DNA from: Cellvibrionaceae bacterium
GTDB lineage: Bacteria > Pseudomonadota > Gammaproteobacteria > Pseudomonadales > Cellvibrionaceae
Reading direction: 5' to 3'
Length of the DNA: 24,387 bases
Assembly (NCBI GenBank): GCA_035338675.1
Contig: DAOQGS010000002.1
Coordinates: forward strand, 1-24,387
Part shown: positions 2 through 5,609 of the stretch, piece after piece
How the letters are laid out: the number at the start of each line of letters is the position of its first letter
How positions within the stretch are numbered: the stretch's first letter is position 1
Program-made: the position numbers and the translations under genes
Notes under the pieces: model-generated
What the model was told of the DNA's origin: nothing
What the model saw: only the letters and a program-made list of their open reading frames with translations
Databases searched by the model: none

Positions 2-835
2 TTACACCGGCTGATCGCGGCGGCGCCGCAAATTCACTGGCTTAGCGATAGCCTGCAGGACCTTACGCGCGAGGGGGAGCTGTGCCTGCTGCACACCGCC
101 GCAGGGGCGACTATTCAAACGCCGCTCATTCTCGCCGCCGATGGCGCCCGCTCTGCCGTGCGCAGCCTGGCGGCCATCCCGGTGCGCCAGTGGTCCTATG
201 GCCATACGGCCTTGGTCTGCCGGGTACATACCGAGCGCCCCCATCGCCATACCGCCTACCAGCGCTTCACCCACCAGGGCCCCCTGGCGTTTTTGCCGTT
301 ATTCCCGGCCGGGCAGCAGGACAGCTCTATTGTCTGGTCCTTAGATAACACACTTGCCGAGCAGATGATGGCGCTGAGCGAGGACGAGTTTAAAACCGCC
401 CTGGCCGCCGCCCTTGAACATCGCCTGGGCGCCGTGTTGCAGTGTGATGCCCGCCTCGCCCTGCCCTTACATCAATGCCACGCCCGCCGCTACTGCGCAC
501 CGGGAGTCACTCTGCTGGGGGATGCGGCCCACGCCATTCACCCACTGGCCGGGCAGGGCGTTAACCTGGGCCTGGCCGATGTGGCCGCTTTAGTGGATGA
601 ACTGGCCCGCGCCCACCAGAGAGGCCTGCCCCTTGCCCACCCCAGCGTACAGGATCGCTACCAGCGCGCCCGTATGCCCCACAATTTGGCGGCCATGGCG
701 GCCATGGAATCCTTCAAGCGGCTGTTCGGCAACAGCAACCCCTATGTGGGCCTGGTGCGCAACCTGGGCCTTAAGCTTGCGGGGCAGCTGCCGGGGGTGA
801 AACAGCAGTTTATGCGCTTGGCGAGCGGCCGCTAA
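2..835 (+). CDS. FAD-dependent ubiquinone-biosynthesis hydroxylase, UbiI(VisC)/UbiH/UbiF family; 5' end lies outside the window
   Basis: Frame +2 is open from base 2 (LHRLIAAAPQIHWL...LILAADGARSAVR), upstream of the track start at 158. Motifs AADGxxS, YQRF...GPLAFLP and LLGDAAHAIHPLAGQGVNLG are typical of the family. I cannot tell the paralogs apart by eye. Confidence 0.9.
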   Translation, partial: LHRLIAAAPQIHWLSDSLQDLTREGELCLLHTAAGATIQTPLILAADGARSAVRSLAAIPVRQWSYGHTALVCRVHTERPHRHTAYQRFTHQGPLAFLPLFPAGQQDSSIVWSLDNTLAEQMMALSEDEFKTALAAALEHRLGAVLQCDARLALPLHQCHARRYCAPGVTLLGDAAHAIHPLAGQGVNLGLADVAALVDELARAHQRGLPLAHPSVQDRYQRARMPHNLAAMAAMESFKRLFGNSNPYVGLVRNLGLKLAGQLPGVKQQFMRLASGR

Positions 836-2124
836 TGGCACTCGGGCCAGCAAAGACCCTGGTCAGCCAGCAGACCTGGCAGATCTGCCCCCATTGCGGC
901 GAGTTGTTGCGCCGGGTGCCGGCCTGTGAAGAGCAGGCGCTCTTGTGCCCCAACTGCCAGCTGCCGCTACCGGCGGCCAAAACCGCCTGGGTGCAACCGG
1001 CCACGGCCCTGTCGGTGGCGGCGGTGGTGTTGTTTATTATCAGCAACAGTTTTGATTTTTTAAGCCTAAAACTGGTGAGCTTTGAGCAGAGCACCAGTAT
1101 TCTCGCGGGCGTGGGCGCCCTGCTAGCCCACCAACAGTGGCTGCTGGCGGCCCTGGTGTTCTCAACGATATTTTTATTCCCCCTGCTGGAAGTCGCCGCC
1201 CTGTTGTATCTGTTAGTGCCCTTTCAGCTCAAGCGCCGCCTGCCCGGCCAGGTGGCCGTGTTGCGCTGGCTGATCCGCGCCCAGCCCTGGAGCATGCTGG
1301 AGATTTTTCTGCTGGCGATCCTGGTCACCTCGGTGAAGCTTGGCGACATGGCAAGCCTTATCCCCGGCGTGAGCATGTACGCCTTTTTTGCCCTGGTGCC
1401 GATTCTGGCCATCGCCTATGGGGTTATCGACCGGCAGAGCCTGTGGAGTTATCTGCAGCCGGATAATTGTTATGTAGCCGAGCCTTCCGATCTGCTCTAC
1501 GCCTGCGGTGTATGTGAAGCCATGGTGGGGGAGACGCTGCTGAATCACAGCGCCCATTGCCCGCGCTGCCTAAGCCCCATGCACAAGCGCATTCCCAACA
1601 GCCTGCAAAAAACCACCGCGTTAATTGTGGCCTCGGTGATTTTATATATCCCCGCCAACCTCTTACCCTTTATGACCACCCGCACCCTCACCGGGGAGCG
1701 CGACGACACCCTGGTGAGCGGGGTCATCAGCCTGCTCAACCACGATATGTGGTTAATTGCCGCCGTGGTATTTATCGCGAGTATAGTGGTGCCCATGGCC
1801 AAACTGGGGGTGCTGATTTATTTACTGGCCAGCGCCCACTGGCAGCACTACCGCAACCAAGCCACCAAAATTCGCCTGTATCACTTAACCGAATTAATCG
1901 GCCGCTGGTCCATGGTGGATGTGTATGTGGTCACCCTGCTTACCGCCCTGGTGCAGTTTGGTTTTTTAGGCAATATCCAGCCGGGCAATGCCCTGGTGGC
2001 CTTTGCCGCCGTGGTGGTATTAACTATGCTCGCCGCTGAGACTTTCGACCCGCGTTTATTAGACACCCCCCAGGAACAGCCTGGGGATTTTCCGGCCCAT
2101 GCGTTTAAACATGAATCTACCTAA
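835..2124 (+). CDS. pqiA: Paraquat-inducible protein A (two fused PqiA domains), inner-membrane component of an MCE system
   Basis: Two CxxC...CxxC clusters (CPHC/CPNC and CGVC/CPRC), each followed by TM segments; PWSMLEIFLLAILV and GRWSMVDVYVV motifs; start overlaps the upstream stop (TAATG 833-837). Confidence 0.93.
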   Translation: MALGPAKTLVSQQTWQICPHCGELLRRVPACEEQALLCPNCQLPLPAAKTAWVQPATALSVAAVVLFIISNSFDFLSLKLVSFEQSTSILAGVGALLAHQQWLLAALVFSTIFLFPLLEVAALLYLLVPFQLKRRLPGQVAVLRWLIRAQPWSMLEIFLLAILVTSVKLGDMASLIPGVSMYAFFALVPILAIAYGVIDRQSLWSYLQPDNCYVAEPSDLLYACGVCEAMVGETLLNHSAHCPRCLSPMHKRIPNSLQKTTALIVASVILYIPANLLPFMTTRTLTGERDDTLVSGVISLLNHDMWLIAAVVFIASIVVPMAKLGVLIYLLASAHWQHYRNQATKIRLYHLTELIGRWSMVDVYVVTLLTALVQFGFLGNIQPGNALVAFAAVVVLTMLAAETFDPRLLDTPQEQPGDFPAHAFKHEST

Positions 2125-3736
2125 ACCGATGGTTACACCCTTCCAAAAACTCTCGCCGGTGTGGTTAATCCCCCTGGTAGCGCTGATCATTGCCCTGTGG
2201 CTGGCGATTAATTCCTGGCAGGAAAAAGGCCAGGAAATTGAAATCCTTTTAAACGCGGCGGCGGGCATCGAAGTGGGTAAAACCCAGGTGCGCCTAAAAG
2301 ATGTGCCGGTGGGCAAGGTCTCCAAAATGCAGCTCACCGCCGATTTAAGCAAAGTGCGTTTAAAAGTCACCCTAGAGCGGGAAATTGCCAAACACCTAAG
2401 TGTGAATACGCGTTTTTGGCTGGTGAGCCCGCGTATTAGTGTGGCGGGGGTTTCCAACCTCGGCACCCTAGTATCTGGTGTATATATCGTGATGGACCCT
2501 GGTGAACCCGGCGCCTTTTCCACCAATTTTGACGGCTTACCGGAGCCACCCGCCATAGAATCCAGCGTCAAAGGCACCACCTTTTTATTGCGCGCCGACA
2601 GCCTAGATTCGGTGGATATAGGCTCGCCGGTGTATTACCGGCAATTAAAAGTCGGCGAAGTCACCAGCTATAAACTGAGCGAAACTGGCGAAGCGGTGGA
2701 AATTCGCGTGTTTGTGCAGGCCCCCCACGATAAATTAATCACCAGCCACAGCCGTTTTTGGAATGTCAGCGGGTTTGATATCAACCTGGGGCCAGACGGT
2801 GTAAAGGCGCAAATGGCCTCGTTAGTGTCGTTTTTAGGCGGCGGTATTTCCTTTGAAAATATCAACGCCTATGAAAACGCGGAACCTGCCAAAGCCAATC
2901 AAACCTTTTTTCTCTACGCCGATAAAGAATCGGTACTGGAAGGCCGCTTTAGCGCCAAATTTTATTATCTGCTGAAATTCTCCCACTCCGTGCGCGGCTT
3001 AAAAGCCGGTGCGCCGGTGGAATTTCGCGGCATTAAAGTGGGCGAAGTGGTGGATGTGGTGTTATCCAGCATTGAAAACCAAGATAAATCCCTGCTGGTG
3101 TATATCACCTTAGAGCCTGAGCGTTTTAAAGCGGATTTAGAACCCAAGCGGGAAATTATCGACGGCATGGTGGCCAAAATGGTTGACCAGGGCCTGCGCG
3201 GCCAATTGCGCACCGACAGCCTATTAACCGGCAGCCTGTATGTGGATTTAGCCTTTGAAAACAAACAAAAACCCGGCAAATTAACCGTCACCGACAACCA
3301 TGCGGAAATTCCCACCCTCGATGACCCGCTGGATCAGCTCACCAAACAGTTAAGTGAAATTACCGATAAATTTAACCGTATTCCCAGCGATAAAATTGGC
3401 GCCGACCTGGCTAAATCCATGGCGAGCTTGGCCAATATAATGAATACCCTGGATAAGAATAATACCGCTGGCAAACTCGATGGCACCCTGGGCAATCTTG
3501 AAAAAGCCACCCACGACATGGACAAAACAGTAGCCGAGGCCACCCAAACCCTCAGCCAATTGCGGGTGACTTTAAAAAGCCTGGATGCCACTTTTGCGCC
3601 GGATTCCCAATTGCATTTTGAAGTAATTGAAATGCTCAATTCCGTTACCGAAGCGTCCGATTCGTTTGATCGCATTGCCGATGAATTAAAACGCTATCCC
3701 AACGCCTTAATATTCGGAGGCAAGAAAAAAGAATGA
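2111..3736 (+). CDS. pqiB: PqiB, three-MCE-domain intermembrane transport protein
   Basis: N-terminal SPVWLIPLVALII anchor; three MCE repeats (GIEVGKTQVRLKDVPVGKV, SVDIGSPVYYRQLKVGEV, GLKAGAPVEFRGIKVGEV); helical C-terminus ending YPNALIFG. Start may be 2099 or 2111. Confidence 0.93.
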   Translation: MNLPKPMVTPFQKLSPVWLIPLVALIIALWLAINSWQEKGQEIEILLNAAAGIEVGKTQVRLKDVPVGKVSKMQLTADLSKVRLKVTLEREIAKHLSVNTRFWLVSPRISVAGVSNLGTLVSGVYIVMDPGEPGAFSTNFDGLPEPPAIESSVKGTTFLLRADSLDSVDIGSPVYYRQLKVGEVTSYKLSETGEAVEIRVFVQAPHDKLITSHSRFWNVSGFDINLGPDGVKAQMASLVSFLGGGISFENINAYENAEPAKANQTFFLYADKESVLEGRFSAKFYYLLKFSHSVRGLKAGAPVEFRGIKVGEVVDVVLSSIENQDKSLLVYITLEPERFKADLEPKREIIDGMVAKMVDQGLRGQLRTDSLLTGSLYVDLAFENKQKPGKLTVTDNHAEIPTLDDPLDQLTKQLSEITDKFNRIPSDKIGADLAKSMASLANIMNTLDKNNTAGKLDGTLGNLEKATHDMDKTVAEATQTLSQLRVTLKSLDATFAPDSQLHFEVIEMLNSVTEASDSFDRIADELKRYPNALIFGGKKKE

Positions 3737-4308
3737 TCGCCCGCGGCCTGTTATTCAGTCTGTTGCTGTGGGGGCTATGTGCCTGCAGTCAGCAGACCCA
3801 TTATTACACCCTGCACCACACCAAGGGCCCCAAAGCGCCCCTGGGCAGCTACACATTTAGCTTGGGCATAGGCCCGGTATTCCTACCGGAAAGCCACAAC
3901 CAACCGGGGGTGGTGAGCCTGACCGAAGGCCAGGAAGTCACTGTGGCCCAGTACCATATTTGGGCCGGTTATTTAAATCAGTCGGTGACGCGGGTGCTGG
4001 CCGATAATTTATCCCTGCTGCTCGGCGCCGATACCGTCTGGCCCTTTCCCTGGGATAACCGCATGCGCCCTGTGCGCCAGGTGCGGGTAATTATTGAAGA
4101 AATGGCCGGGCAGCGAGGCAAAACAGTGGCCCTACAGGCTAAATATATTCTCACCGCCGACAACGGCGAGCGCACCCTGGCCGCCGAGCGCACCCGCATT
4201 GAAGTGCCCTGCGCTGGCGATTCCTACGAAGCCTATGTGGCGGCTATTAACCAGGCGCTCAATCAATTATCCGAACAGATGGCCAAAACCCTGATCGCCA
4301 AACAATAG
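3733..4308 (+). CDS. pqiC: PqiC-like outer-membrane lipoprotein
   Basis: ATGA overlap with pqiB; lipobox-like LCAC then S...YYTL; IGPVFLP and HIWAGYL...RVLADNLS pattern; position after pqiAB. Confidence 0.85.
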   Translation: MIARGLLFSLLLWGLCACSQQTHYYTLHHTKGPKAPLGSYTFSLGIGPVFLPESHNQPGVVSLTEGQEVTVAQYHIWAGYLNQSVTRVLADNLSLLLGADTVWPFPWDNRMRPVRQVRVIIEEMAGQRGKTVALQAKYILTADNGERTLAAERTRIEVPCAGDSYEAYVAAINQALNQLSEQMAKTLIAKQ

Positions 4309-4355
4309 GCTTTTAGCCGCCGTAACTTACAGGTATCTACCCCACTATTCCTATG

Positions 4356-4834
4356 TTATGTGAAATAGATGCATGAAGATTCTATATGTTGAAAACCATC
4401 CGTACTTCGGGAAAATTGTGAAAGACAAATTCCTTAGTGAATTTCATGTAACTATAGTGCCAAGCATTAAGTCCGCCACTGAAGCAGTAAATCAATCGAG
4501 TTTTGATATAGCGTTAGTGGATTACGACTTGGATGATGGCAAAGGGGATGAATTCATCGCCTACTTAATAAGAGCAGGTATTGATTTACCTTGTATAGCA
4601 GTTTCATCCCATGAAAATGGGAATTCAGCTCTAGTTAAAGCTGGAGCAGTAAGTGTTTGCAGTAAAATGCATTTCTCAAAAATTGCTTCTGTGGTGGGTA
4701 AAATTAATGTGTAAAGTAAAACAATCACATAACAAGCGTGTCCATTTGACACTTTGGCCTACGTTGCGCTTTGGGGTGGCTGCGCCACTTTACCCCAAAG
4801 CTCCACTACGGCCAAAGTGCAAATGACACGGGCG
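4356..4834 (+). mobile_element. Solitary integron gene cassette (479 bp) integrated at G^TT (4355/4356)
   Basis: Left core GTTATGTGA (4355-4363) is the exact reverse complement of TCACATAAC (4725-4733) at the start of the attC. The cassette holds one ORF, is AT-rich and ends in an attC. Confidence 0.9.
4373..4714 (+). CDS. Stand-alone response-regulator receiver (CheY-like) protein; cassette cargo
   Basis: KILYVEN (beta1), LVDYDL with Asp50, AVSS with Ser78, Lys98. Hand count gives about 37% GC over 4381-4710, clearly lower than the flanking genes. Confidence 0.85.
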   Translation: MKILYVENHPYFGKIVKDKFLSEFHVTIVPSIKSATEAVNQSSFDIALVDYDLDDGKGDEFIAYLIRAGIDLPCIAVSSHENGNSALVKAGAVSVCSKMHFSKIASVVGKINV

Positions 4835-4840
4835 TTAAAT
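4727..4840 (+). mobile_element. attC recombination site (114 bp)
   Basis: R'' ACATAAC 4727-4733; 5-nt spacer; L'' TGTCCATT 4739-4746; L' AATGACA 4822-4828; 5-nt spacer; R' GTTAAAT 4834-4840 (fits GTTRRRY). Arm GTGTC(C)ATTTG(A)CACTTTGGCC pairs with GGCCAAAGTGCAAATGACAC, leaving an unpaired C and A (G and T on the bottom strand). Inner stem CTTTGGGGT/ACCCCAAAG. Confidence 0.93.
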
Positions 4841-5050
4841 AGAATTTTAATTATCCCTCTGCTGCTTAGCGCCTATGGCTGCGACTCCAGATCCCAGCCC
4901 CAGAGAGAGCTGACTAGGCCCGCAGCGGAGGTGAAAGCGGTCATTCCCAGCGCCATAGACGCAGCCGCGCCGGGGGCGGCGCAAGCGGTGAGTGCCGAGG
5001 ATATTAAACAGGCCCAGGAGGCCGCCGCCGATAGCCCCCAGCACGAATAA
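4823..5050 (+). CDS. Small Ala/Gln-rich probable lipoprotein; original start displaced by the cassette, now starting from an ATG inside attC
   Basis: MTRALNRILIIPLLLSAYGC resembles a signal peptide II followed by a low-complexity tail. Removing the cassette gives ATG|TTA AAT AGA (MLNRIL...) in frame. Confidence 0.6.
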   Translation: MTRALNRILIIPLLLSAYGCDSRSQPQRELTRPAAEVKAVIPSAIDAAAPGAAQAVSAEDIKQAQEAAADSPQHE

Positions 5051-5141
5051 AAATCTGCCTCTGGGTTTGCCAGCGGCTTTTAGGATAAGATGCTTTTTTG
5101 TATCAATCGTTAATTAAATCAACCTGTTGAGGAGCGCAAAT

Positions 5142-5579
5142 ATGCGGTTAAAAAAATGTGTGATGGTGTTGGGTCTGGCGGCATTTTTACAGTCCACAAC
5201 CGGTTGCGGTTTACTCTTACACCCTGAGCGCCAGGGCTCCAAGGGCGGCAACCTGGACCCTGTCATAGTGCTGCTGGACGGTTTGGGTTTATTTTTCTTT
5301 TTAGTGCCCGGAATAGTCGCCTTTGCGGTGGATGTCTCCACCGGCTGTATTTACACCGGCGGCGGTGGTGGCGGTGGCAAGCGCCGTCATTTCTCCTCCA
5401 TCGAGCAAGGCCAGCCAATCAACGCCGATGAATTGGCGGGCATGAAAAAAATCGCTTTAAACGGCCCGGTGACTAAAGCCTCCATCGAAGCGGCCCTAGA
5501 GCGGGAACTGGGGCAAAAAGTAGATATCACCGCCGCCAATGTACAGGTGCAACCTATTTTGGAACCCGCCAAAATTTAA
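5142..5579 (+). CDS. Conserved hypothetical membrane lipoprotein
   Basis: RBS GAGGAG 7 nt before ATG 5142; signal ending TTGC; HPERQG...DPVIVLLDGLGLFFFLVPGIVAFAVD..TGCIY hydrophobic hairpin, a pattern I recognise from small proteobacterial proteins. Confidence 0.75.
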   Translation: MRLKKCVMVLGLAAFLQSTTGCGLLLHPERQGSKGGNLDPVIVLLDGLGLFFFLVPGIVAFAVDVSTGCIYTGGGGGGGKRRHFSSIEQGQPINADELAGMKKIALNGPVTKASIEAALERELGQKVDITAANVQVQPILEPAKI

Positions 5580-5584
5580 TACTT

Positions 5585-5609
5585 AACCCGGCTTTGGCCG
5601 GGTTTTTTT
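5585..5609 (+). terminator. Rho-independent terminator
   Basis: AACCCGGC-TTTG-GCCGGGTT followed by a T run, 5 nt after the stop at 5579. Confidence 0.85.

Follow-up and report, generated by a model that had tools for sequence, protein, structure and literature searches.

SALINs, which consist of one coding sequence and one attC, have been catalogued only recently; 3400 were counted in the complete genomes of RefSeq, and their route of formation, in which an integron integrase (IntI) recombines the attC of a cassette with a genomic attG site, was shown experimentally, mainly in E. coli assays (bioRxiv 10.1101/2022.09.11.507474). The attG consensus is 5'-GWT-3', cleaved after the G, and expression requires that the cassette be located downstream of a resident operon in the same orientation (bioRxiv 10.1101/2022.09.11.507474). 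That paper also cites the aadB cassette, which was found at secondary sites in RSF1010 and pRAY. In attI1, ORF-11 and ORF-18 aid the translation of cassettes that have no initiation region of their own (PMC8876359).

The locus described here was found in a metagenome-assembled genome (MAG) of Cellvibrionaceae from activated sludge or wastewater (GCA_035338675.1; 4.2 Mb, 917 contigs, 95% complete), in a 24,387-bp stretch of contig DAOQGS010000002.1 that was analysed as a whole and is termed the window. A single cassette encoding a stand-alone receiver (REC) domain is inserted between the pqiABC operon and a small lipoprotein gene, and it was very probably placed there by IntI-mediated attC × attG recombination, making the locus a SALIN. 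A sequence-only reading had already proposed a natural SALIN (single attC, no integrase), and this proposal is supported by an attC covariance model, by congeners lacking the cassette, and by a G|TT target. The phenomenon is already known, and the locus is a clean further case that leaves the current model unchanged; the rewiring of gene starts predicted at the two junctions is a modest additional point.

The locus shares with published SALIN and attG cases the presence of one coding sequence and one attC, the absence of any other att site or intI nearby, the G|WT crossover, and a position downstream of a resident operon in the same orientation. Unlike them, it has its insertion point in a start codon, with both genes still having plausible starts, and no intI is detectable in its host, an uncultured Cellvibrionaceae MAG; in addition, the right-hand motif of published attG hotspots (CRGM, +6 to +9) is not evident in the window sequence (TTAAATAGA). 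The attC belongs to the same family as those of the cassettes in Cellvibrionaceae chromosomal integrons (the arrays of genomes G023 and G001), being 75-88% identical and sharing a common structure, but those cassettes are located beside intI and attI, whereas the window cassette is alone among core genes. As with aadB in RSF1010 and pRAY, as cited in the paper above, one whole cassette is found outside any att site, a position just downstream of a promoter being the further shared feature; aadB is described there as plasmid-borne and conferring resistance, whereas the window cassette is chromosomal and carries a receiver-domain gene. The locus would be a tidy natural attG case in an uncultured environmental lineage, with both junctions intact, a target that can be reconstructed to the base, an attC family that leads back to chromosomal integrons of the Cellvibrionaceae, and an insertion that looks fixed in populations from wastewater whose sampling extended over several years. 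It also offers a substrate (the attC, an 18-bp target of 9+9 bp and the IntI of a congener) for the study of attG recombination beyond the class 1-3 integrases, and is suited to asking whether cassettes at start codons are expressed by translational coupling.

Layout of the locus and limits of the cassette

The features of the locus are listed in Table 1. The cassette, pqiABC and the lipoprotein gene all point in one direction, and 46 nt separate the pqiC stop (4308) from G4355, as had been reported from the sequence alone. The GC content drops from ~0.58-0.61 in pqiC to 0.38-0.41 over 4300-4800 and then rises again; it is 40% for the cassette (4356-4834) and 37% for its ORF, compared with 53% for the window.

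Table 1. Features of the window and attC-like sites on other contigs (C149, C232 and C546) of the same MAG.
Feature	Position	Strand	Remarks
pqiA	835-2124	+	Pfam; upstream of pqiC
pqiB	2099-3736	+	Pfam; upstream of pqiC
pqiC (ABC_trans_aux lipoprotein)	3733-4308	+	PF03886, 127 bits; last gene of pqiABC, upstream host flank
Former ATG start of host lipoprotein gene	4353-4355	+	G4355 = host half of crossover G|TT
7-codon leader ORF, MLCEIDA*	4353-4376	+	made by the insertion; TGA overlaps ATG of cassette gene (ATGA)
Integron cassette, 479 bp	4356-4834	+	T4356 to G4834; ends set by 9-nt match of core and inverse core
Cassette ORF, 113-aa stand-alone REC domain	4373-4714	+	PF00072
attC, 113 bp	4728-4840	+	bases 4835-4840 are host sequence
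attC R'' (ACATAAC)	4728-4734	+	6/7 to consensus RYYYAAC
attC spacer AAGCG, 5 nt	4735-4739	+	read from sequence
attC L'' arm	from 4740	+	extra C at 4743/4744, extra A at 4750
attC L' arm	ends 4828	+	read from sequence
attC spacer CGGGC, 5 nt	4829-4833	+	read from sequence
attC R' (GTTAAAT)	4834-4840	+	7/7 to consensus GTTRRRY
Small host lipoprotein gene, present form	4823-5050	+	new in-frame ATG within attC L' arm, then lipobox Cys
attC-like site, clear (L077)	C149:4304-4420	-	52.8 bits, E ~9e-15
attC-like site, weaker (L078)	C232:4729-4838	-	31.1 bits
attC-like site, weaker (L078)	C232:5724-5789	-	16.3 bits
attC-like site, weaker (L079)	C546:942-1062	+	31.5 bits

The left core of the cassette, GTTATGTGA (4355-4363), is the reverse complement of TCACATAAC (4726-4734) at nine of nine positions, in agreement with the 9-nt match to its own R'' noted in the sequence-only reading. 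The 64 nt that separate the pqiC stop from the start of the ORF contain a single GTT, so that the probability of the six further bases matching by chance is ~2e-4. A complete match of the core would be expected if the segment T4356...G4834 had once been circular, with GTTATGTGA as its R'. The same complementarity between the 5' end and R'' was found in a homologous REC cassette on another contig (L048). The segment 4356-4834 is one complete integron cassette, and its ends match what an integrase would be expected to produce.

The attC site and its relatives

The imperfect palindrome spans 4726-4840, and its long stem ends in a branched tip. The R'', L'', L' and R' boxes, the 5-nt spacers and the two extra bases described earlier were all located at the positions given in Table 1. 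Counted from the first base of R'' and numbered after PMC5027507, the extrahelical bases (EHBs) of the bottom strand are G16 and T23, with a 6-bp stem (CATTTG) between them. According to PMC5027507, attC sites have spacers of 5-6 nt, usually G16 and a conserved T23/24, a 6-bp stem, and a length of 57-141 bp; the window attC has the same two-EHB arrangement, and its length of 113 bp is within this range. Folded as single-stranded DNA, the bottom strand reaches -35.5 kcal/mol (z = -8.0), a value equalled by none of 200 shuffled sequences.

When the region was compared by BLAST with 40 related genomes, matches with 75-88% identity that cover precisely the attC stretch were obtained in eight of them, which belong to the same family or order. 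In G023, the matching attC sites form an array (G023:C1:1853423-1871746, plus strand) that adjoins intI (1850514-1851455, minus strand); in the congener G001, intI precedes at least 15 model matches, which are on the cassette strand and continue to the end of the contig; and contig C24 of G012 contains intI with attC sites ~9-10 kb downstream. In an alignment of 16 attC sites (A1), 35 base pairs were recognized, 96% of the cells were paired, and 20 of the pairs showed compensatory changes, whereas none of 500 column shuffles reached the observed values and slid controls paired in 38-51% of the cells.

Two covariance models were used, both of which are specific to this attC family and distinct from the general IntegronFinder model: R1 was built including the window's own attC, and R2 is a leave-one-out model for which 15 attC sites were taken from seven other genomes, including an intI-adjacent array. 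R2 matched the window attC with 129.2 bits (E ~1e-39) and with all 35 pairs standard, a strong match that bears out the earlier identification of the element as an attC. No second attC was detected in the 24,387-bp window at E<=1 by R1 or R2 with filters off, except for a mirror match of the same palindrome on the opposite strand. A home-made whole-genome scan for AAC...GTT hairpins returned 38 matches, compared with 26 in the reversed genome, and most of these matches are a REP-like repeat; because the scan does not discriminate, the covariance models were relied on instead. The attC of the window is genuine.

A repeat of ~170 nt occurs on more than 50 contigs of the MAG (e.g. C105:3877-3923, C158:4023-4072, C177:3163-3212, and C443:384-433) and also in the congeners G001, G002 and G004; no copies were found in the window. 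It contains a near-perfect palindromic core of ~37 nt, GGCGGCAAAATAGATC...GATCTATTTTGCCGCC, flanked by TTAAC/GTTAA, lacks bulges of the attC type, and looks REP- or MITE-like.

Target site, distribution and origin of the insertion

In the congeners G001, G002 and G004, the orthologous lipoprotein gene is immediately 3' of pqiC; a cassette is lacking between the two genes, and the downstream synteny is conserved. The lipoprotein of the window and its orthologues in these three genomes share a signal peptide, the lipobox Cys and an IP(S/T)AIEAA motif. The sequence-only reading would have been contradicted by relatives carrying the receiver gene at this position without the core and attC boundaries; none of the three congeners carries the receiver gene here. 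As for an empty site in relatives, the absence of the cassette from G001, G002 and G004 was established, but no same-species empty allele was obtained at the nucleotide level. The intergenic regions and N-termini of the congeners are too diverged to be aligned with the window, and the pre-insertion sequence given below is a reconstruction. The pqiBC genes are ~89% identical to those of G001 at the nucleotide level, and the insertion is younger than the split from G001.

The left junction reads ...CCTATG|TTATGTGA... and the right junction ...GGGCG|TTAAATAG..., implying the target CCTATG|TTAAAT. In-silico deletion of 4356-4834 yields ...CCTATG|TTAAAT..., continuing TTAAATAGA; the product reads MLNRILIIPLLLSAYGC..., and its ATG is the sole in-frame start of the lipoprotein gene. 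The reconstructed empty-site junction is CCTATGTTAAAT, and the junction reconstructed after precise removal of the cassette is ATGTTAAAT. The junctions together with the restored start codon thus place the crossover at G|TT, which fits the GWT consensus. The lipoprotein orthologue of G004 (L013:1460) also starts with ATGTTA, that is, with the same G|TT target at its start codon, and is unoccupied.

Eight contigs encoding an identical PqiC were retrieved from ENA, NCBI (including two further MAGs) and Logan, seven of which reach into or across the cassette, the eighth ending 45 nt past pqiC. MAGs of this species include GCA_035333545.1 and GCA_035328205.1. All eight are identical to the window locus over their overlap, apart from one mismatch in 2457 nt (L033), and one or both junctions are spanned at 100% identity by contigs from runs of at least four studies. 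Every same-species contig reaching the site carries the identical cassette, and the insertion looks fixed in the species. The exact REC protein was found only in contigs of this species. Among Logan contigs of four runs covering 3733-5600, the cassette-less form was not found; contigs cannot show rare variants. In the JGI metagenome contigs there was no match to the reconstructed junction and none to the right flank alone, which is common to both forms, indicating that this collection does not contain the locus. In the 90% protein cluster of the lipoprotein, all members are calls of 75 aa or 98 aa that derive from the occupied form, and no empty allele is represented.

The absence of an integrase near the cassette, noted earlier for the window, extends to the entire contig, on which no tyrosine recombinase was detected; the PF00589 matches of the MAG are all on other contigs. 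In the whole MAG, no match to the IntI model TIGR02249 exceeded 30 bits (cut-off, 265), and tblastn searches with the IntI sequences of the congeners G001 and G002 and of G023 identified only an Xer-like gene with 27-29% identity. IntI scored over the cut-off in 27 of 41 genomes (40 relatives and this MAG, itself without it), including G001, G002 and G004, and three of four congeners possess intI. Two close IntI homologues from sludge metagenomes (P0124 and P0125) belong to other species: locus L080 is 95-97% identical to G001, and for L083 the flanks reach only 73-80% identity to this genome. The flank bordering intI in G001 (G001:C5:724676-727459, comprising a gene for a Nitro_FeMo-Co-domain protein and its neighbours) is located on contig C210 (L086) of this MAG, where it is joined to DNA that is on another contig in G001 and where intI is absent. 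From this one flank that could be followed, the integron platform may have been lost from, or moved within, this genome.

The earlier statement that there is no second attC holds for the 24-kb window but not for the genome, in which one clear and three weaker attC-like sites were found on other contigs (Table 1). The clear site, on C149, is located directly 3' of a 332-aa ORF without a Pfam match and is 86-89% identical to attC sites of G001 (C1:749027-749130 and C12:78879-78987). The two sites on C232 flank a 286-aa ORF for an Mrr-like nuclease, near an ORF for a STAND-type NTPase and gltB; this pair may be a small CALIN with defence-like genes. Past integrase activity in this lineage is plausible, and the most likely source of the integrase is a chromosomal integron of the Cellvibrionaceae, either the lineage's own (lost or unassembled) or a transient one.

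In the proposed mechanism, IntI would have recombined the folded bottom strand of the attC of a circular cassette with a double-stranded attG, 5'-G|TT-3', 46 nt downstream of pqiC, with the crossover falling between the G of the lipoprotein gene's ATG and the TT of the codon that follows. The outcome would be a lone REC ORF with its attC and with no integrase, attI or further attC nearby. It is improbable that the insertion by IntI took place in another strain or species and that the occupied locus was then acquired by homologous recombination of the flanks, a history in which this lineage would need no integrase of its own. The lack of intI in the assembly and the joining of the intI-bordering flank of G001 to unrelated DNA in this genome would suit such a transfer; however, all same-species contigs have flanks of 100% identity, no cassette-bearing donor is known, the restriction of the exact REC protein to this species argues against it, and the same attC × attG event would still be required. 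The cassette could also be all that remains of an array or integron that once occupied the interval from pqiC to the lipoprotein gene and decayed (a CALIN reduced to a single cassette), as might be suspected of a genome with other attC-like sites and without intI. This is highly improbable in view of the three congeners in which pqiC directly precedes the lipoprotein gene, the restoration of the host start codon by deletion of exactly one cassette, and the absence from the window of any attI-like remnant, intI pseudogene or second attC.

The resemblance to attC could be that of a REP-like or terminator-like palindrome located downstream of a native orphan response-regulator gene, in a genome rich in palindromic repeats flanked by TTAAC/GTTAA and in which the crude hairpin scan gave no separation (38 in the real and 26 in the reversed sequence). 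Such an origin is hardly credible, given that the palindrome has attC homologues in intI-adjacent arrays, that the R2 match also contradicts it, that the asymmetric G16/T23 bulges are missing from REP palindromes, and that the REC gene is absent from the congeners and compositionally foreign. A chimera of assembly or binning, conceivable in a MAG of 917 contigs, can be given almost no weight, since the eight contigs from ENA, NCBI and Logan agree except for the one L033 mismatch, seven of them reach into or across the cassette, and the junctions, left, right or both, are spanned by contigs in runs from four studies.

The cassette gene and predicted expression across the junctions

The product of the cassette ORF matches PF00072 with 37.4 bits (cut-off, 30.2). 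It has 306 homologues, short REC-only proteins mostly of ~113-130 aa, and those aligned (A2) are 47-58% identical. The aligned family shares the invariant motifs VENH, DYDLDDGKGDE, SSHxxGN and CSKM and the invariant residues H9, Y51, H80, N84 and C96. D50 aligns with the phospho-acceptor Asp of solved receivers, the acidic pair is E7-N8, the E-N pair of the family being in place of D-D, and the conserved Lys is followed by Met, not Pro. The protein is most likely a single-domain response regulator or a phosphate sink. A homologue with 56% identity (P0010) is encoded between two attC sites on an array-like contig (L048) that also carries a transposase of the IS110 family; its layout is that of the window cassette, with a short 5' leader lacking a Shine-Dalgarno sequence and an ORF that stops at the edge of R''. 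Among the contexts of the homologues, L048 is the only clear cassette, those on L046, L049 and L051/52 not being clearly cassettes.

The REC gene of the window has no clear Shine-Dalgarno sequence. In a consensus scan, the plus-strand interval from the pqiC stop to the cassette contained nothing resembling a terminator; the only promoter-like match (4389-4416) is inside the REC ORF, and none was detected upstream of that gene. No RNA run was found to contain the locus. Transcription of the cassette would occur by read-through from pqiABC or from the promoter of the lipoprotein gene, the former being the simplest route. The retained host ATG is predicted to drive the 7-codon leader, whose stop codon overlaps the ATG of the REC gene and may couple the translation of the two. 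The leader resembles ORF-11/ORF-18 of attI1 in being a short ORF that runs from the recipient site across the recombination point, ends at the 5' end of the cassette, and terminates beside a start codon without its own Shine-Dalgarno sequence. It differs in that its start is the captured start of a host gene with no evident Shine-Dalgarno sequence, and its role in coupling is putative.

At the other junction, the lipoprotein gene now has an in-frame ATG at 4823 in the L' arm, from which it would be translated, and MTRA replaces the original M; the gene callers of other assemblies give the 75-aa product. This ATG is within a motif, CAAATGACA, that is common to some related attC sites (G012_a and G013_a) and therefore predates the insertion.

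That the position of the insertion was selected rather than accidental is rather doubtful. If it was, an ATG|TT start would double as a G|WT attG and would give a cassette lacking a Shine-Dalgarno sequence the initiation region of the host gene through the ATGA leader, and the L' ATG carried by this attC subfamily (CAAATGACA) would restart the interrupted host gene in frame. If such events were general, the 5' ends of genes would be preferred low-cost sites for the landing and expression of cassettes outside integrons, and some attC families would carry 'repair' start codons. A rough estimate of the probability by chance is ~0.1 for the overlapping ATGA and ~0.06 for the presence of an ATG within four codons, and either of them could be a coincidence filtered by selection.
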